A DNA stretch of 7,698 nucleotides, taken from the IMG/VR virus record IMGVR_UViG_2734482594_000023; one strand, written 5' to 3'. The stretch is from a virus. Lineage: Duplodnaviria; Heunggongvirae; Uroviricota; Caudoviricetes. Shown piece after piece: positions 1-7,698 of this stretch (its first letter is position 1; each line of letters opens with the position of its first letter). The position numbers were made by a program, and so were the translations under genes. The notes under the pieces were generated by a model. That model did no database searches. It was not told the DNA's origin and saw only the letters and a list, made by a program, of their open reading frames with translations.

Positions 1-459
1 TTATTCAGTCGGCAGTGCTACGCGCCAGGGGAGCAGTTCGCCGACCCGGTTTATCGGCCAGTCGGCTATGACGTCAAGGACATAGCGGAGGTAGCTTTCT
101 GGCTCCACTCCGTTCAGTTTGCACGTCCCGATCAGGCTGTACAGCAGCGCTCCCCGCTCTCCTCCATGATCCGAACCGAAGAACAGGTAGTTTTTGCGGC
201 CCAGACTGACCATCCGCAACGCATTTTCAGCGATGTTATTGTCCGCCTCAGCCCAGCCATCATCTGCATAGTACGTCAGCGCCGGCCACTGGTTCAGGGC
301 ATATGCGAACGCTTTCGCCAGTTCTGAGTGTCGCGACAGGGTTTTCATCTTTTCACGCAGCCAGCTTTCCAGGGATTTCAGCAGCGGTTTCGTTTTCAAC
401 TGACGTTCGGCAAGGCGCTGTTTCAGCAGGAAGATGTCGTCAGAAGAGATGTCGTTCAT
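1..459 (-). CDS. IS66-family transposase, C-terminal fragment (truncated remnant)
   Basis: The 152-aa ORF carries the conserved C-terminal block of IS66-family transposases (...DNNIAENALRMVSLGRKNYLFFGSDHGGERGALLYSLIGTCKLNGVEPESYLRYVLDVIADWP...ELLPW). The upstream in-frame sequence hits a stop at 520-522, so the N-terminal two-thirds of the transposase and the other IS66 genes are absent on this side. Confidence 0.8.
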   Translation of the reverse strand: MNDISSDDIFLLKQRLAERQLKTKPLLKSLESWLREKMKTLSRHSELAKAFAYALNQWPALTYYADDGWAEADNNIAENALRMVSLGRKNYLFFGSDHGGERGALLYSLIGTCKLNGVEPESYLRYVLDVIADWPINRVGELLPWRVALPTE

Positions 460-522
460 AAGCCCGTATTTTACCGGGCTTATTCTGTGACAACCAGGAT
501 AAAGAGATTTACAGCATGGTCA
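1..522 (-). mobile_element. IS66-family insertion sequence remnant (3' portion only); right boundary approximate
   Basis: Transposase homology runs to the window edge at position 1 and cannot extend past the in-frame stop at 520-522. No IS terminal inverted repeat could be identified by eye. Confidence 0.4.
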
Positions 523-552
523 GGGAGGTCAGCAGCCGCTTAGGCTGTCTAT

Positions 553-642
553 AGCGCGGCGATTTTTTTGATACCGATTTGCATTTCATTTGATACCGCT
601 GAAAAACGCCGATACGCAACTTATTTGATACTAAATCGGCGC
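553..642. repeat. Cluster of short direct and inverted repeats (GATAC x4; CGGCGAT / ATCGGCG) downstream of mom; candidate transposase-binding sites at a Mu-like prophage end
   Basis: GATAC occurs at 570-574, 592-596, 611-615 and 627-631. TTGATACCG is repeated at 568-576 and 590-598. GCGCGGCGATTT (553-564) is near-inverted to AATCGGCGC (634-642), and GAAAAACGCCGA (601-612) resembles Mu end-type GAAAAACGCGAAA motifs as I recall them. Confidence 0.35.
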
Positions 643-677
643 TTTTCTTTTGAGTTTTAGAATGAGTTTTTAAGCGT

Positions 678-1415
678 TCATTCACTCTCTTTCAAACCAG
701 TTTTAACTGTTTGTGGTTTTGGGTAAGGCTGGACTTTGAATAGCTTTGTGTTAAGGCGTTTTCTGGCTCTCTTGTCCAGAAACCGGATGTAACGAAACTG
801 ACGGAATTTATGAACACTGGCTCTGTCGATATTAGCCCGCAGATGTTCACCTCGCTGTCCTCCTCGTTTGATTGCATTCTTGCAAATCTCGTGATACCAC
901 TCGCCATCAAGTTCATAGAATGTTGTTTCATGACTGCCTACATAATCAAAATTGCTTGCCTGGTACACGACACCAAGACAGCCACAACGCTCATCTGCAA
1001 ACGACTGAACCCACTGCACCTGCGGATAAAGTTGTCTGATTAGTTTGAGCGCGTAACTGATTGCCCTTGATTCGGAGTTTCTCGGCATACAGTCATGCAG
1101 CCATAACCGGTTAAGCTCCATATATTCGCGGTTCTGCGTGCCAGTTACGACGCGTGCACCATTGTTTGGATTAAGGGCATAACCCCATTGCATTACGCCA
1201 ACCAGCTCCCGTTCTGAAAATATGCCCAGATGAAGGTAGGAATTATTTACGAAACGATGGCTGTAATGTTTATTGACGACGACCAGCCGGGCCAGCCAGC
1301 AACTTATTGTCTCAACCCGTAACTCACGGGAGCCATAACCGACGATATTGTCGTTATAGTGAATAAGTTCAGGCGTGCTGATGATACGGGATGTAACTTG
1401 CTTTCTGTTCCCCAC
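678..1415 (-). CDS. mom: Mom-family DNA modification protein (adenine carbamoylmethylation, acyltransferase-like); start codon uncertain
   Basis: The ORF lies immediately downstream of, and overlapping, a Com-type zinc-finger gene, as in phage Mu. The proposed GTG start at 1415 gives 245 aa, close to Mu Mom (about 231 aa as I recall), has AAGGAAA 7-9 nt upstream, and sits in the 3' arm of a hairpin. The ORF track extends to a GTG at 1610, which I regard as over-extended; an ATG at 1577 is an alternative. Confidence 0.75.
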
Positions 1416-1569
1416 GACAGGATTTCCTTGTGTATGTGGGGTGCTCTGTGGCGCTCTGAGATGTGATTTGATTGAGGGTTTTACAGCGCGGACATTTAAC
1501 TTCCAGATAACTGAAGCTGGCTCGTGCCAGTAGCTTGTTACAATGTCGGCACCGTATGTTTCGATACAT
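1369..1569 (-). CDS. com: Com-family zinc-finger translational activator of mom
   Basis: The 66-aa product [33 protein letters not shown]... has a CxxC...CxxC zinc-finger layout like Mu Com. AGGAGG lies 10 nt upstream of the ATG at 1569, and the 3' end overlaps the mom start region by about 46 nt. The track's TTG start at 1614 is rejected. Confidence 0.8.
1410..1441 (-). promoter_or_regulatory. mRNA hairpin sequestering the mom GTG start, with the Shine-Dalgarno in the loop (putative Com-responsive translational operator)
   Basis: On the minus strand, CCCCAC (1441-1436) pairs with GTGGGG (1415-1410). The 20-nt loop contains AAGGAAA, and the GTG at 1415-1413 lies in the 3' arm. Confidence 0.45.
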
Positions 1570-1610
1570 GGCCGCATAACCTCCTGCTTTGTTGTTGATA
1601 TCTTTATCAC

Positions 1611-1702
1611 TCAATCGATCGACAAAAACGATCGATTTGATTTATTTAATTGATACAACAAATAACACGAAATGTCATTAGCGAAAATTTATGAGTTTGA
1701 TC
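1611..1702. promoter_or_regulatory. AT-rich divergent control region upstream of com/mom with clustered Dam (GATC) sites and an inverted repeat
   Basis: GATC occurs at 1617-1620, 1630-1633 and 1699-1702. The imperfect inverted repeat TCAATCGATCG-ACAAAAA-CGATCGATTTGA spans 1611-1640. In Mu, mom transcription is controlled by Dam methylation of upstream GATC sites (OxyR binding) and by C-protein activation. Confidence 0.4.
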
Positions 1703-1825
1703 ACTAATTTTAAACGGTGCTGTAACGCATAAGTGCTGAATGATTGTACATTTGAATACCGCAAAGCAAACAAATCAACTAATTTATAGAAGTCAATTGG
1801 TTAATTGCCAGCGTAAGAGGCTGCT

Positions 1826-2119
1826 ATGGACAATCATGTAACGACGAGAAATCGAAAAATGATTGAAAATGCGGAAATCTATAATGATTATTTTTCCGAT
1901 TATTCAGATGCCTGCAAATACAGTTCGAGTGCGGGAGAGTTCATATGCTTCAACTTTTTTATTAAATCTTATGTTTTTCCTCCACAGCAAGAAGATGGAG
2001 GTGTGCCACCTCCTGAAATCACTTTGCACCGTATAGCCTCCGTCTCAATGATGGAGCAACAGGCTAATGAGCTGTATAGCATTCTGGGAACGATTCTACA
2101 AAAGCGTGAATCGGACTAA
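1826..2119 (+). CDS. Hypothetical protein, 97 aa (low-GC orphan gene)
   Basis: ATG at 1826 is preceded by AAGAGG at 5-nt spacing and the frame is open for 97 codons. The gene is AT-rich compared with its neighbours and divergent from com/mom. I recognise no motif. Confidence 0.5.
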   Translation: MDNHVTTRNRKMIENAEIYNDYFSDYSDACKYSSSAGEFICFNFFIKSYVFPPQQEDGGVPPPEITLHRIASVSMMEQQANELYSILGTILQKRESD

Positions 2120-2286
2120 TGATACCGGTTCATTTGCCTGCCCGGATGGGGAAGCAGGATTGACTGCTCCATAAGCAGCTATATTTCTGAATACGAAATA
2201 CTATCCAGCGATTACATATGGCTGGATAGCGGCAAAGATGTTTTCATTAGTGTCAAACCGGCAGAGGACACCACCGGTTTGTATTG

Positions 2287-2541
2287 TTACATCATGGTAC
2301 TGTCAGTTCCGGGCTGAGCCGGGTCTGGTTGCTCTGGCTGCGCGTCGGTTTTCGGCTCATTATCAGCATCACTGGCCGCAACTGCTGGCCCAATAAGTTT
2401 TGCCAGCACTTCATCAACGTAAGTGTCGATTTGTGCCTCAAAATCCTTGCGGACCTGCGCTTTCAGCAACTTATTTACTTCACCGGAATACAGTGCCTGT
2501 TTTACCAGGTCTTCAGTGACGGTGCCTTTAATTTCTGGCAT
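2287..2541 (-). CDS. Hypothetical acidic protein, 84 aa
   Basis: ATG at 2541 has a strong AAGGAGG 7 nt upstream. The product is net acidic (about 16 D/E against 8 K/R) with a Pro/Asp/Glu-rich tail. It lies 35 nt downstream of the small membrane-protein gene, consistent with an operon. Confidence 0.65.
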   Translation of the reverse strand: MPEIKGTVTEDLVKQALYSGEVNKLLKAQVRKDFEAQIDTYVDEVLAKLIGPAVAASDADNEPKTDAQPEQPDPAQPGTDSTMM

Positions 2542-2576
2542 GTATATCCTCCTTATGCGGGAATAAAGCCCTGCAA

Positions 2577-2759
2577 TCAGGGCTGGGTCGGGTCTTTTGG
2601 GAGCGGAGTTACCTGCGCTGTTTTACTGAGTTTTTCAGCTGCTGCGTCCTCAATTTTGCGGCGAACATAATTTCTGATGGCCTTATAACCACCACTCACC
2701 AGATATAACGCACATACTGCCGTGCAGAAATACAATAAAATAAGCTGTAAAAATGTCAT
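2577..2759 (-). CDS. Small single-pass membrane protein, 60 aa
   Basis: ATG at 2759 is preceded by GGGAGGG. The product MTFLQLILLYFCTAVCALYLVSGG has one hydrophobic helix followed by a basic, charged tail (KAIRNYVRRKIED...). The track's TTG start at 2771 is rejected. Confidence 0.55.
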   Translation of the reverse strand: MTFLQLILLYFCTAVCALYLVSGGYKAIRNYVRRKIEDAAAEKLSKTAQVTPLPKDPTQP

Positions 2760-2774
2760 TATCCCTCCCAATTA

Positions 2775-2801
2775 TTGACATGGTGTTGACACCGGTAATA
2801 T
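2775..2801 (+). promoter_or_regulatory. Putative sigma70-type promoter on the plus strand, overlapping a 12-bp palindrome
   Basis: A perfect TTGACA at 2775-2780 is followed by a 15-nt spacer and TAATAT at 2796-2801. A second TTGACA lies at 2786-2791, and GGTGTtgACACC (2782-2793) is palindromic. The short spacer is a weakness. Confidence 0.3.
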
Positions 2802-2855
2802 CTGTTAGGTAAAAAGGTGCACTGCATTTTTTGCTTTGGATATAACGATCTTTTT

Positions 2856-2896
2856 GCCGCCGGTTTCTTGTTTTCCCTTACCGGCGGCATTTTTTT
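2856..2896 (+). terminator. Rho-independent terminator, oriented for the plus strand
   Basis: GCCGCCGGT (2856-2864) pairs with ACCGGCGGC (2880-2888) around a 15-nt loop and is followed by T7 at 2890-2896. On the minus strand the stem is followed by AAAAAG, so it is not a good terminator for the esterase gene. Confidence 0.5.
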
Positions 2897-2903
2897 ATCC
2901 TGC

Positions 2904-4440
2904 TTACGCGTTATTCACTTCCACCACGATACTGTCAATCAGTACCGGGTAAGTCGCATTTTTAGTGATATCGGTCACGCGCAACTTGTCTGCCGTAAAC
3001 GTGCCGACCGGAGACTGCGACAGCATGAATGGTGTCCCGTCCTTACCATCAANNNNNNNNNNNNNNNNNNNNNNNNNNNNNNNNNNNNNNNNNNNNNNNN
3101 NNNNNNNNNNNNNNNNNNNNNNNNNNNNNNNNNNNNNNNNNNNNNNNNNNNNNNNNNNNNNNNNNNNNNNNNNNNNNNNNNNNNNNNNNNNNNNNNNNNN
3201 NNNNNNNNNNNNNNNNNNNNNNNNNNNNNNNNNNNNNNNNNNNNNNNNNNNNNNNNNNNNNNNNNNNNNNNNNNNNNNNNNNNNNNNNNNNNNNNNNNNN
3301 NNNNNNNNNNNNNNNNNNNNNNNNNNNNNNNNNNNNNNNNNNNNNNNNNNNTGAGCCTTGCCACCTCCGGCAGCCCAACCCTGTGGTGTCAACCGTCCTT
3401 CAGACTCAGATGCCCGGTAAGCAAATAGCGTACTCATCGTCGTGGTGTCTGCGGGTGGCGTGGACGGTTTTGATGGTGTATCAGGTGACGGCTTCTCATC
3501 CGGTGGTGTCACGGTCTGCCCACGCATCAGTTCAGCCGTGCGCCCTGCATGGAGCATAATAGCTGAGGCCAGACGGTCTGAAATGACGCCCCTGCGTGCC
3601 CATGAGCTGAAATGGCTGTCACGCTGTGTCGAAACAAAACTGCCCTGGGTTCGGGATGCTGCACCGTAATACCCGACAGCCACAATATCCGGGTCTTCCG
3701 CCGGAGCATTCGTTGGCGTGCNNNNNNNNNNNNNNNNNNNNNNNNNNNNNNNNNNNNNNNNNNNNNNNNNNNNNNNNNNNNNNNNNNNNNNNNNNNNNNN
3801 NNNNNNNNNNNNNNNNNNNNNNNNNNNNNNNNNNNNNNNNNNNNNNNNNNNNNNNNNNNNNNNNNNNNNNNNNNNNNNNNNNNNNNNNNNNNNNNNNNNN
3901 NNNNNNNNNNNNNNNNNNNNNNNNNNNNNNNNNNNNNNNNNNNNNNNNNNNNNNNNNNNNNNNNNNNNNNNNNNNNNNNNNNNNNNNNNNNNNNNNNNNN
4001 NNNNNNNNNNNNNNNNNGCGGTCAAACGAATCCGGTAACGGCAGCCCCTCGCCGTAGGCCATGCCATTTGACTGACCCGCGAGAATGACAACAAAGTAAT
4101 ATTCCGGCTCTGAACTGCTGCCATTCGTGCTACCGGAAGGCCCGGCGTTATCCGGTGCATTCCAGTCGGAGGGCGTGAGCGTTCCGGCCACGTCAGATGT
4201 GATTGGAATGATGCCAGTCACGCCTGAACTGGTGATTTCTGCACTGGGATTACCGGATACCGGCATTACCCATAATGGCTCTTTCGTGCTGAAGCGGATC
4301 ACGCAGTCTGCGAAGGTGATCCCCCCTTTATTACCCGAAGGGCGGAAAGGGCTTTCAATAAATGCCACCGTGCCACCGGCAACCTTGACTGAAAACTCTC
4401 CGGGCATGGCGGAGAGCATTTTCCACTTGGAGTCTGACAT
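2904..4440 (-). CDS. NanS-like sialate O-acetylesterase (SGNH/SASA-type) with an N-terminal extension and a C-terminal Pro/Thr-rich linker plus extra domain; frame ambiguous across masked blocks
   Basis: The N-terminal part (4440->4018) contains YYFVVILAGQSNGMAYGEGLPLPD, the GQSN nucleophile block of SASA/NanS esterases. After the mask, TNAPAEDPD...GYYG...SHFSSWARRGVISDR continues the esterase in a different frame, followed by TPPDEKPSPDTPSKPSTPP and a C-terminal region ending at the TAA at 2904. The span (1537 nt) is not a multiple of 3, so either a frameshift lies in 3722-4017 or the masking is not length-exact. Confidence 0.65.
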
Positions 4441-4516
4441 CGTCTTTTCTGCCTGTTTCTGAATTAAACAGAGTCAGAATAGCGACCGCTGAAAAATATG
4501 TGTTTTGCGGAAATTC

Positions 4517-4544
4517 AAAAAAGCGTCACGGTACTTTTGGTGAC
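4517..4544 (-). terminator. Weak hairpin plus U-run at the invertase stop codon
   Basis: On the minus strand, GTCAC (4544-4540) pairs with GTGAC (4529-4525) across a 10-nt loop, followed by GCTTTTTTG. The stem is short. Confidence 0.25.
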
Positions 4545-5136
4545 GGAGCTGGTGAGGCAGGAAAATAACGATAAAGGNNNNNNNNNNNNNNNNNNNNNNN
4601 NNNNNNNNNNNNNNNNNNNNNNNNNNNNNNNNNNNNNNNNNNNNNNNNNNNNNNNNNNNNNNNNNNNNNNNNNNNNNNNNNNNNNNNNNNNNNNNNNNNN
4701 NNNNNNNNNNNNNNNNNNNNNNNNNNNNNNNNNNNNNNNNNNNNNNNNNNNNNNNNNNNNNNNNNNNNNNNNNNNNNNNNNNNNNNNNNNNNNNNNNNNN
4801 NNNNNNNNNNNNNNNNNNNNNNNNNNNNNNNNNNNNNNNNNNNNNNNNNNNNNNNNNNTTGTCCGTAATGCTGCGGAAGTTAACGCCGCGTTGCCGGAGT
4901 TCTTCTGTTAAAAGGACAAGGTGCTGCATACTGCGTCCAAGGCGATCCAGTTTCCAGACCAGCAGGGTATCCCCTGGCCGGAGTCGCTTTAATGCGCGTT
5001 TAAGTCCGGGACGCTCCCTTGTCTTACCGCTTATTCTGTCTTCGAAAAACAGCTCACATCCTGCACATTCCAGCGCATTTCTTTGTAGCGCCGTATTCTG
5101 GTCATTTGTTGACACCCTGATATACCCAATCAGCAT
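4526..5136 (-). CDS. Site-specific DNA invertase, serine recombinase (Gin/Pin/Cin/Hin family); C-terminal frame differs from the ORF track
   Basis: The N-terminus MLIGYIRVSTNDQNTALQRNALECAGCELFFEDRISGK...LLVWKLDRLGRS is a canonical resolvase/invertase catalytic domain. Left of the mask, the frame reading LYRYFPASPAPSPKVP* (stop at 4528-4526) matches the Hin-type C-terminal helix-turn-helix tail (STLYRYFPAS). The track frame ending at 4474 is rejected. The span is not a multiple of 3 if the masked block is length-exact. Confidence 0.8.
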
Positions 5137-5430
5137 NNNNNNNNNNNNNNNNNNNNNNNNNNNNNNNNNNNNNNNNNNNNNNNNNNNNNNNNNNNNNNNN
5201 NNNNNNNNNNNNNNNNNNNNNNNNNNNNNNNNNNNNNNNNNNNNNNNNNNNNNNNNNNNNNNNNNNNNNNNNNNNNNNNNNNNNNNNNNNNNNNNNNNNN
5301 NNNNNNNNNNNNNNNNNNNNNNNNNNNNNNNNNNNNNNNNNNNNNNNNNNNNNNNNNNNNNNNNNNNNNNNNNNNNNNNNNNNNNNNNNNNNNNNNNNNN
5401 NNNNNNNNNNNNNNNNNNNNNNNNNNNNNN

Positions 5431-5613
5431 TATATCCAGGATATCAGGCTGGGAGCAGAGAACAGGCAGGTAATGTACGGTGGGGCATATTACTCTGCGT
5501 ACGGTAATGTTATGGCAGGCCTGCAGATTGACAGTAAAGTTGATGCTTCAAACGATTTTATAGCATTCAGACCCCTGCAAAAATTAGTCGGAGGTACATG
5601 GATTACGGTATCT
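5431..5613 (+). CDS. Alternative tail-fibre C-terminal tip (S'v-type variable exon), 5' end masked
   Basis: The frame is open from the mask edge to the TAA at 5611-5613: ...GAENRQVMYGGAYYSAYGNVMAGLQIDSKVDASNDFIAFRPLQKLVGGTWITVSQL*. Its tail shares the RPLQ..L..G.W.T motif with the minus-strand fibre tip (...[22 protein letters not shown]). Confidence 0.6.
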
Positions 5614-5673
5614 CAGTTATAAATAGTCAGTAAATAATATATTTTAAAACAGATTTATTTCCAGGAGGATTTT

Positions 5674-6195
5674 ATGGAACTAAAAAATATAACCCGTTAT
5701 TATCCTGAAAATATGCCATATGGTAATAATGTTCAGTATTTCCAGAGTGAAGATGGTAAGGATTTCTACGAATCCCTGCCATTATTCACCAAAAAATATA
5801 AACTTTGCATAACACCTGACAGCGGCGTTATCTGCTCAATATCACAGGACGCCTCGGCGCTGTATCCTGCGGGGTTTTCTGTGGTTGAGGTCGATGAACT
5901 CCCTGAAGGCACGGATATTTCAGGAAACTGGAAGTTTGATAATGGCATAATCTCCCGTATTCCGGTTAACTACGCAAGAAAACTGGAAGCAATGCGCCAG
6001 TCATATCTTAATCAGGCATATGAAAAAATTAATGACTGGAGAACGGAGCTACAACTGGGCACCATCAGCGATGAAGACAGAGCAGCACTTACCCAATGGA
6101 TGGCATACATCAGTCAGGTGAAGAAAATGGAACTACCCGCCATTAAAACAGAAGCTGAATTTAACGCCATTAAATGGCCTGAGCAGCCACAGTAA
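5674..6195 (+). CDS. Tail fibre assembly protein (Tfa / Mu U / P2 G-like chaperone)
   Basis: ATG at 5674 has AGGAGG 5 nt upstream. The 173-aa product sits 60 nt after the alternative fibre tip, and its size, position and C-terminal region (...WMAYISQVKKMELPAIKTEAEFNAIKWPEQP) fit the Tfa family. Confidence 0.75.
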   Translation: MELKNITRYYPENMPYGNNVQYFQSEDGKDFYESLPLFTKKYKLCITPDSGVICSISQDASALYPAGFSVVEVDELPEGTDISGNWKFDNGIISRIPVNYARKLEAMRQSYLNQAYEKINDWRTELQLGTISDEDRAALTQWMAYISQVKKMELPAIKTEAEFNAIKWPEQPQ

Positions 6196-6198
6196 TAA

Positions 6199-6218
6199 AG
6201 AAGGCCGGAAGGCCTTCT
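6199..6218. terminator. Perfect hairpin between convergent tfa and tail-fibre genes (probable terminator for the fibre transcript)
   Basis: AGAAGGCC (6199-6206) pairs with GGCCTTCT (6211-6218) around a GGAA loop. On the minus strand the stem is followed by UUAUUACU. It lies 8 nt beyond the fibre stop and 3 nt beyond the tfa stop. Confidence 0.5.
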
Positions 6219-6226
6219 GAATATCA

Positions 6227-7108
6227 TTATATACTTGCAGCCGTCACCCATGCTCCATTTAACAGATACTGCAACGGCCGGTAATACACGCCGCCGACGT
6301 TATCTGCCGTATTCTTACCGACATCCTGTACTTTAATTCCGGTAAGAACATTGCCGCCCCCCAGATTCAGATCCCAGCTTTCCCATGTTCCGGGCATATG
6401 TGCGGTCACCGACCCCAGTCTTATGGCGGTTACTGTTCCTGATGAGATAGTGATATCCTGCGTCCCGTCAAAGGGAACACCATTAATTGTGTGGGCATTT
6501 GCCAGCCTGTTCGCGGCAACGGCGGTGCCGTCCGATGGCAGGGCATTCGCCGCCCTGTTTACCGTTTCCCGTAAACCGACGTTATCGATAAAAGCCCCTT
6601 TATCCGGAATGTCTGCGCCGTTCTGCTCCCTGCGCAGGTAACGGTTATCACCTTCGCTTTTGCTGTAAACATCCAGATTATTACGGGCGGTTCCCTTATT
6701 CTCCAGGTCGGCGAGATTCTGATCCTTCGCCAGGGCATTAACGTCAGCGGGACCAAGACTGTTTTTTGTGGCAAGCGTCCCCAGACCAAGATAACCACGG
6801 GCCAGACGCTGGGCCTCCGCACCGGCATCAGCAATTTCTTTCAGGTTATTTTTCCGGGAAAAGGCATTCGCAGCGATAATGGCTTTAATGGACAGCGTAA
6901 GCTGGTTTAACTGCGCCTTATCCGGCTGAATACTGGCTTCAGCCAGAATATTCAGCAGTTCGGCCTGGAGAATATTCAGCCAGTCCTGACCAATCCAGCT
7001 GATACCTTTTTGTCCGTCACCTTCGGTAAACCAGGTGGTGGTATTACTCTGCGCCGGTGCCAGCGCAGGCATATTCGCCACGCCGGAATTATTATCAACA
7101 TGAAACAT
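6227..7108 (-). CDS. Tail fibre protein (constant N-terminal part plus variable C-terminal tip in its current orientation)
   Basis: ATG at 7108 has GAGGAGA 8 nt upstream, 15 nt after the stop of the upstream baseplate gene. The 293-aa product has an N-terminus [18 protein letters not shown]...WFTEG...[15 protein letters not shown] that I read as the fibre type found in Mu/P2-like phages (from memory), and the crossover site falls in the codons for FIDNVGLRE. Confidence 0.8.
6566..6591. other. gix/hix-like 26-bp recombination (crossover) site for the serine invertase
   Basis: TTCCCGTAAACC-GA-CGTTATCGATAA compared with Mu gixL TTCCTGTAAACC-GA-GGTTTTGGATAA (as recalled) matches at 22 of 26 positions with the same half-site/2-bp core layout. 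It lies inside the tail-fibre ORF at the constant/variable junction. Confidence 0.6.
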
Positions 7109-7123
7109 TAAATAGTCTCCTCT

Positions 7124-7681
7124 TCATGGCTNNNNNNNNNNNNNNNNNNNNNNNNNNNNNNNNNNNNNNNNNNNNNNNNNNNNNNNNNNNNNNNNNNNNN
7201 NNNNNNNNNNNNNNNNNNNNNNNNNNNNNNNNNNNNNNNNNNNNNNNNNNNNNNNNNNNNNNNNNNNNNNNNNNNNNNNNNNNNNNNNNNNNNNNNNNNN
7301 NNNNNNNNNNNNNNNNNNNNNNNNNNNNNNNNNNNNNNNNNNNNNNNNNNNNNNNNNNNNNNNNNNNNNNNNNNNNNNNNNNNNCGAGGGCTTCATCCGG
7401 TATTTATTTCCGGCATAACGCTGTCGCTCCGTGAGGGTGGCTCCGGCCATATCACACTCGGGAAGCCCGAGATAACGCTCCCAGTCTTCCAGCAGCAGGC
7501 GCGACGTGTCAGGGAAACGCTCGGCAAGCAGCTGTTTACCCGTCCAGGATACACGCGCTGTCGAATGACTGAGGCCCAGACATAATGATGCCAGTACGGA
7601 TGACGGACGCTTGTCCCATGCCAGCCCGTCAGGCAGTAACTGCAACAGGGCGCGCTGATGCGGGGTCAGGGTTACAGCCAT
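7124..7681 (-). CDS. Phage baseplate/tail protein (P2 gpI / Mu gp48-like, DUF2313-type); C-terminal half masked
   Basis: ATG at 7681 has AGGAGA 7 nt upstream. The N-terminus MAVTLTPHQRALLQLLPDGLAWDKRP...LLEDWERYLGLPE resembles the gpI/gp48 family. The gene sits directly upstream of the tail-fibre gene, as in P2 (I-H-G) and Mu (48-S-U). The TGA at 7126-7124 is in frame only if the masked block is length-exact. Confidence 0.65.
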   Translation of the reverse strand: MAVTLTPHQRALLQLLPDGLAWDKRPSSVLASLCLGLSHSTARVSWTGKQLLAERFPDTSRLLLEDWERYLGLPECDMAGATLTERQRYAGNKYRMKPSXXXXXXXXXXXXXXXXXXXXXXXXXXXXXXXXXXXXXXXXXXXXXXXXXXXXXXXXXXXXXXXXXXXXXXXXXXXXXXXXXXXXXP

Positions 7682-7698
7682 GTGATTTCTCCTACCGT

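Follow-up and report, generated by a model that had tools for sequence, protein, structure and literature searches.

Tail-fibre switching driven by DNA invertases has been textbook material since Mu, P1 and e14. In the G segment of Mu, the constant N-terminus of the fibre is encoded outside the segment and joined to alternative C-termini encoded inside it, and each tip comes with a chaperone gene of its own (S-U and S'-U'). Two chaperone genes are present not only in Mu but also in e14, a P2-like phage and a Yersinia Mu-like phage. For Sp18, a Mu-like prophage of E. coli O157:H7 Sakai, an 'invertible host-specificity region' has been reported (Asadulghani et al., PMC2669165).

In this study we analysed a stretch of 7,698 nucleotides of viral DNA (IMG/VR record IMGVR_UViG_2734482594_000023), hereafter called the window, which comes from the right-hand end of a transposable, Mu-like E. 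coli prophage. A preliminary description, made from the letters of the window, had read the locus as an invertase-driven tail-fibre switch with a crossover site inside the fibre coding sequence. Our results support this reading, as we found the invertase, two sites, enhancer-like cores and both orientations. The locus is very probably a working flip-flop segment of the Mu type, that is, a Gin/Cin/Pin-type tail-fibre switch that swaps the tip of the fibre by means of the adjacent invertase. It resembles its relatives closely and departs from them in having a single chaperone gene.

Results

The features of the window were obtained from the listing of open reading frames and from family scans, which detected Mom, Com and gp48 (Table 1). 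Five blocks of N interrupt the window and do not keep the true length; in the block next to the invertase gene, 294 N stand for 247 real bases (by comparison with L001 6279-6525). For the masked parts we used the genome of E. coli JE86-ST05 (L001 in the coordinates given here), which has 100% identity to the readable bases of the query (window positions 4859-7131). This genome contains a complete Mu-like prophage of ~38 kb, inserted in rhsC, with genes for MuA, MuB, Gam, Mor, lysis, head, sheath, tube, tape measure and baseplate functions. Several of its tail genes are annotated as frameshifted, and the RefSeq labels at the locus are 'partial' tail-protein pseudogenes and 'hypothetical' fibres. 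When a phage collection was searched, the segment occurred in no record except the Mu-like inserts of two Stx-phage records.

Table 1. Features of the window (positions 1 to 7,698), listed from left to right.
Feature	Position	Strand	Remarks
IS66 transposase fragment	1-459		ORF listing and family scans
mom	678-1610		ORF listing and family scans
com	1369-1614		ORF listing and family scans
Large gene, broken up by masks	2904-4440		ORF listing and family scans
Gin/Cin/Pin-family DNA invertase gene	4474-5136	-	Masked at 4578-4858; Pfam Resolvase on the visible N-terminus
Candidate enhancer	5047-5118		Invertase gene positions 19-90; two Fis-like 15-bp cores
Masked block	5137-5430		In L001: 65-bp spacer, partner site and first ~52 codons of the silent S'v
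Silent alternative tip S'v, visible 3' part	5431-5621	+	Without start codon or promoter of its own
Tail-fibre assembly (chaperone) gene	5674-6195	+	Pfam Caudo_TAP, E 4.8e-19; phrog_136
G+C-rich hairpin, terminator-like, for the fibre transcript	6199-6218		Between two convergent stops; L001 7294-7313 minus; palindrome I4
Currently expressed variable tip Sv	6227-6565	-	Residues after the crossover to the stop; ORF list
Fibre-proximal 26-bp crossover site	6566-6591	-	Central dinucleotide 6578-6579; 22/26 match to Mu gix
Constant N-terminal fibre part Sc	6592-7108	-	Outside the invertible segment; homologous to Mu S
Mu gp48/YmfQ gene	7124-7681		ORF listing and family scans

The crossover site in the window falls within the fibre ORF (6227-7108, minus strand). 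It reads TTCCCGTAAACCGACGTTATCGATAA on the plus strand and, inwards from the constant part, TTATCGATAACG-TC-GGTTTACGGGAA. Mu gix is TTATCCAAAACC-TC-GGTTTACAGGAA, from which the window site differs at 4 of 26 positions while having the same central TC. The number of gix-like matches expected by chance in the readable window is ~3.6e-6, and a search with a degenerate pattern and a script identified this site as the only gix-like one in the readable sequence. A search that allowed no more than 3 mismatches to Mu gix gave no match in the window, because the site carries 4. The preliminary description was therefore correct about a 26-bp gix-like site in the fibre gene. Its further statement, that the site lies exactly where constant and variable parts meet, holds for the DNA, as the inverted sequence begins there, but not for the protein, in which the divergence of the tips starts ~50 residues later.

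The description had also pointed to the masked block as the place to look for a partner site, and an inverted partner is indeed present under this mask, at L001 6344-6369 (TTCCTGAAAACC-TC-GGTTTACGGGAA). Genomes with 100% identity to the readable window have 65 bp between this partner and the start of the invertase gene. We thus observed two inverted, imperfectly palindromic 26-bp sites with an identical central dinucleotide, as in the Fis/enhancer-dependent family, and these gix-like sites bound an invertible segment of ~1.3 kb. The inverted-repeat arms consist of 86 nt at 93% identity (L001 6349-6434 and 7596-7681) and a further 50 nt at 84% identity (L001 6448-6497 and 7533-7582).

A Gin/Hin-type invertase had been proposed to sit beside the inverted tip and chaperone genes, and this assignment stands. 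The gene has a true size of 573 bp in L001 and encodes 190 aa with Resolvase and HTH_7 domains. The protein is 74% identical to Gin and 72% identical to both PinE and Cin, and it matches the Gin structure 4m6f with an E value of 2.5e-88. With its Resolvase and HTH domains, its length of ~190 aa and its active-site serine (Ser9, in MLIGYIRVSTNDQ), it has the composition of a small serine recombinase, as read from L001 for the middle part that is masked in the window. Six residues of Hin (K47, R48, K51, Q151, R154 and L155) are uniquely conserved in Fis/enhancer-dependent invertases (McLean et al., PMC3798978). An alignment placed them at K46, R47, K50, Q150, R153 and L154 of the window-family invertase, which keeps all six. 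The invertase is intact in L001, the genome identical to the readable part of the window, and its sequence suggests that this adjacent Gin-type enzyme catalyses the inversion.

Fis-binding sites had been suggested as something to look for in the 5' end of the invertase gene, and we found two Fis-like cores there, at window positions 5100-5114 and 5052-5066 (gene positions 23-37 and 71-85). Their centres, at gene positions 30 and 78, are 48 bp apart. Both cores match the degenerate Fis consensus in full. Mu gin and e14 pinE have them at identical positions, and in P1 cin, where they are almost unchanged, both fall inside the interval (cin positions 19-90) that the P1 record labels as the Cin enhancer. 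A Fis-like pair with the 48-bp spacing arose in 43 of 5000 codon shuffles (0.9%), and because the cores overlap strongly conserved codons we grade an enhancer in the 5' end of the gene as only probable. A literature search on the Fis-core sequence returned nothing relevant. By analogy with the family, the inversion would be expected to depend on Fis.

The constant part Sc is identical in both orientations, and fibre residues 1-191 are homologous to Mu S (5yvq_A / 8ju3_A, E ~1e-46). Joined to Sv it forms the fibre of 293 aa encoded in the window, and in flipped genomes it forms an in-frame fusion of 296 aa with S'v. The match to phrog_1833 covers both fibres over their whole length, and the layout, in which a constant N-terminus outside the segment is joined to alternative C-termini inside it, is that of the Mu G segment. 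Sv and S'v are 46% identical overall, with the divergence confined to the last ~70 aa; they share their first ~50 residues because the inverted-repeat arms stay 93% and then 84% identical. Both are similar to the final ~65 residues of Mu S', a type of tip that also ends the H fibres of P2-like phages, P1-like fibres and the short fibre of phiTE. Since the last ~70 residues differ and belong to this receptor-binding tip type, two adsorption specificities are to be expected, and by analogy an inversion would change the host range. Comparison of this family with Sp18 gave ~99% identity for Sc, ~40% with in-frame indels for both tips and 61% for the chaperone. Both tips have been kept as open reading frames while diverging fast between the lineages, and the contrast between Sc and the tips appears to be the usual pattern of fast-evolving receptor-binding tips under selection.

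Of the Mu assembly proteins, U' comes closest to the chaperone (32%, E 1e-28), and U is a further homologue (5yvq_B, E 4e-16). The chaperone gene lies downstream of S'v and, in the window orientation, antisense to the fibre operon. There is no second chaperone gene behind Sv, in the window family or in the Sp18-type relatives, and the two tips are not each paired with a chaperone gene as S-U and S'-U' are in Mu. A promoter scan found no sigma-70-like promoter on the chaperone strand, a result with little bearing on independent expression of the chaperone, because the late promoters of Mu are activator-dependent. With only one chaperone gene, the Sv orientation may therefore give no functional fibre, barring three alternatives: Sv may fold unaided, the chaperone may be expressed independently of the orientation, or it may be supplied in trans by another prophage.

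This raises the question of whether the inversion works as an on/off or cap/no-cap switch, in which only the S'v orientation co-expresses the chaperone. We regard such a function as unlikely. It agrees with the position of the single chaperone gene, which stands behind S'v only in both divergent lineages whereas canonical relatives have two genes, with the lack of a detected promoter on the chaperone strand, and with the type of the tips, both of which are like Mu S', the tip that U' serves in Mu. In Mu itself the chaperone remains attached to the fibre and binds to the cell surface. Mu fibres have been described as gp49 plus gp50, the assembly protein being part of the fibre (PMC11915804). 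However, the Sv reading frame is kept open and the tip is diversifying in the manner of receptor-binding tips, which speaks against such a function, and among E. coli lysogens the orientation without the chaperone prevails, from which we infer that it would also have been the orientation of the particles infecting those hosts. In addition, chaperones of co-resident prophages could act in trans. A switch between two tips thus remains our preferred reading.

To look for both orientations in natural genomes, we compared window positions 4859-7131 with 5,426 complete E. coli genomes by megablast. Window-like segments covering all readable bases were present in 18 genomes (17 of them at 99-100% identity), and the search for the flipped form identified six, four of which had at least 99.7% identity. 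The Sp18-type relatives, found in O157:H7, O111 and other strains with ~84% DNA identity, were window-like in 183 cases and flipped in 23. With respect to its flanks, the interior points the other way in NCCP 13983 and FORC_043, where the 296-aa fibre is followed by the chaperone gene. The left flanks of FORC_029 (chromosome of 5,189,944 bp, window-like) and NCCP 13983 (5,189,943 bp, flipped) show 100% identity over 2,830 nt. DNA alignment of the four junctions of this pair revealed a reciprocal swap, in which the outer half-sites keep their flanks and the inner arms trade partners. The breakpoint lies within 19 nt (TCGGTTTACGGGAAACGGT) that start at the central TC, and in the Sp18 lineage it lies within 28 nt at the same place. 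Hence, both orientations exist and the crossover maps to the core of the site, as in the Fis/enhancer-dependent family. Three genomes contain two prophage copies each, one per orientation. The identical flanks, the reciprocal junctions, the breakpoints bounded by the site core and the two-copy genomes together argue for an inversion that is site-specific and recent, and they speak against exchange at random along ~150 nt of homology.

We also considered whether all flipped members of the Sp18 family descend from one locked lineage that lost 1 nt in a half-site. This was rejected as a general explanation because flipped genomes with a full-length site exist.

The orientations could also be old inherited states of a fossil switch, the segment of which no longer flips. 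The skewed ratio of the orientations would fit this idea, as would the annotation of tail genes as frameshifted in L001 and the existence of locked or damaged derivatives, namely strain M3, which is without the invertase and S'v, and some flipped Sp18-type genomes in which the A run of one half-site is shorter by 1 nt. The skew of ~7:1 could reflect slow switching combined with shared descent, and not frequent switching. A fossil is nevertheless very unlikely, as opposite orientations occur in strains that have identical flanks and chromosome lengths one base apart and even within single genomes with two copies, and as window-like and flipped members of the window allele family alike have an intact invertase ORF and two intact sites. 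Also very unlikely is a flip made not by the invertase but by general homologous recombination (RecA) between the inverted repeats. With ~150 bp these arms are longer than is usual in the family, which would permit an occasional homologous exchange, and a patch that differs between the arms in some strains and is alike in both L001 arms suggests gene conversion between them. In two independent lineages, however, the exchange point falls in the first 19 and 28 nt beside the central dinucleotide, within a homology that spans ~150 nt, and the locus has a Gin-like invertase that is intact, sites with matching cores and an enhancer-like element.

The preliminary description had named two outcomes that would speak against a switch, the lack of an inverted partner site in the masked block and the occurrence of only one orientation together with an inactive invertase. 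The complete genomes instead contain the partner site, an intact invertase and both orientations, at 18 versus 6 in the allele family of the window and 183 versus 23 in the Sp18-type relatives.

Discussion

Our data lead to the following model for the Mu-type switch. A Gin-type serine invertase would flip the ~1.3-kb segment between the site in the fibre gene and the site 65 bp upstream of the invertase gene. Judging from the family, the synapse would be dependent on Fis and an enhancer, with the help of the pair of Fis-like sites that lies within the initial 90 bp of the invertase gene. Crossover at the central TC would then join the fixed ~172 N-terminal residues of the fibre to one of two C-termini. 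In the window orientation the product would be Sc+Sv (293 aa), with the transcript ending at the hairpin and no chaperone gene behind it, and in the other orientation Sc+S'v (296 aa), followed by the chaperone gene. Switching would thereby generate particles with two adsorption specificities.

For general biology little is gained, as invertible regions of this kind are known and the related one of Sp18 is already in the literature. The switch does account for the RefSeq labels at the locus, the 'partial' tail-protein pseudogenes and the 'hypothetical' fibres, and judging by the genome sequences it appears to be still active in ~230 complete genomes of E. coli, O157:H7 and O111 among them.

The single-chaperone layout is the sole feature worth following up. 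Tentatively, and with the chances somewhat against it, the Sp18-type segment might be a stable one-chaperone variant of the Mu switch, in which two paralogous S'-type tips share a single U'-type protein or differ in their need for it. The flip would then toggle between a capped and an uncapped fibre, or else the chaperone would have an unrecognised promoter that works independently of the orientation. In either case, if true, this would be a new way to couple the choice of fibre to the supply of chaperone, and the layout could be used to ask whether a tip type needs an assembly protein.

Among the known systems, the G segment of Mu with Gin provides the most detailed comparison. The prophage type is the same, as is the order of gp47, gp48, fibre, invertible segment, invertase and com/mom. 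The N-terminus of the fibre is homologous to S, the site and gix agree at 22 of 26 positions, the central TC included, the invertase is 74% identical to Gin, and the chaperone is homologous to U and U'. On the other hand, the segment measures ~1.3 kb here and ~3 kb in Mu, the tips have ~120 aa and are both of the S' type whereas those of Mu have ~330 aa, the inverted-repeat arms extend over ~150 nt instead of 34 bp, there is one chaperone gene instead of two, and a gene for a 684-aa acetylesterase-like protein lies between the invertase gene and mom.

Sp18 shares the whole architecture including the single chaperone, with ~99% identity in Sc and ~84% at the DNA level, and differs in the alleles of the tips (~40% identity in the last ~70 aa) and in the chaperone (61% identity). 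The C segment of P1 with Cin and the P segment of e14 with Pin have invertases with 72% identity, 26-bp sites and an enhancer at the place in the gene where the candidate enhancer lies here; unlike the locus described here they have two chaperone genes, and the pix site of e14 has TT instead of TC as its central dinucleotide. Hin and hix of Salmonella belong to the same invertase family and follow the Fis and enhancer logic that is expected here, and the residues by which Hin contacts Fis and the enhancer are conserved here, but Hin flips a promoter and not the tip of a coding sequence. Overall, the locus is an ordinary further member of the Gin/Cin/Pin family of tail-fibre inversion systems, unusual only in having one chaperone gene and not two.

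Altered forms of the invertible segment

Three genomes, NZ_CP103972.1 (DLI.5a), NZ_CP069093.1 (TOE17) and NZ_AP043639.1 (AST46), each carry two copies of the prophage family in opposite orientations. In E. coli M3, the invertase is reduced to all that is left of it, a ∼40-nt 3' remnant, the alternative fibre tip S'v is missing, and the chaperone and fibre genes are left convergent. This derivative is a naturally locked form of the switch. In some flipped genomes of the Sp18 type, that is, with the segment opposite to the window orientation, the invertase-proximal site has lost 1 nt from the A run in its outer half (CTGAAACC in place of CTGAAAACC). The short run was found by exact match in O157:H7 strain 2-6-2 and 8 other records, and other flipped Sp18-type genomes have the full-length run. 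The missing nucleotide could lock the segment or, alternatively, be a homopolymer sequencing error. A short patch within the inverted-repeat arms (GTGAATAAGG versus GTAAACAGGG) differs between the two arms in the FORC strains but is alike in both arms of the JE86-ST05 locus (L001), suggesting gene conversion between the arms.

Coordinates of features in the window and in related loci (L001, JE86-ST05; L008, E. coli M3; L010, O157:H7 strain 2-6-2)
Feature	Position	Strand	Remarks
IS66 transposase C-terminal fragment	window 1-459	minus	abuts prophage end
Mom DNA-modification gene and Com zinc-ribbon gene	window 678-1614	minus	
SASA/DUF6645 gene	window 2904-4440; L001 3566-5620	minus	broken by masks in window; entire in L001
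Short variable patch in inverted-repeat arms	window 6540-6552; L001 6372-6384		alignment columns 46-52
Derivative of prophage switch	L008 3190-3540		NZ_CP010183.1
Invertase-proximal site, shorter A run in outer half	L010 about 2482-2507		

The lengths of the N blocks in the window (3053-3351, 3722-4017, 4578-4858, 5137-5430 and 7132-7384) are not the real lengths, and the invertase gene spans 663 positions in the window versus 573 bp in identical genomes. Distances read from window coordinates that span a mask therefore do not reflect true lengths.

Prophage end and accessory genes

The IS66 fragment at the start of the window, compared with rhsC as the insertion site of the same prophage in JE86-ST05, is consistent with transposition of the Mu type to different sites. 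Repeated TTTGATAC motifs in the end region (window 460-680) might be transposase-binding sites. Elsewhere, within the head-gene region of the prophage, RefSeq annotates a 'tRNA-OTHER' (locus L011, 10101-10180).

The com gene precedes and overlaps mom, an arrangement shared with the right end of Mu; the annotation of L001 records a frameshift in com. Between the invertase gene and mom lies a gene whose 684-aa product combines a sialate O-acetylesterase (SASA) domain with DUF6645 (phrog_143) at its C-terminus. This protein looks like prophage cargo of a type known from Stx phages, and Mu has nothing at this position.
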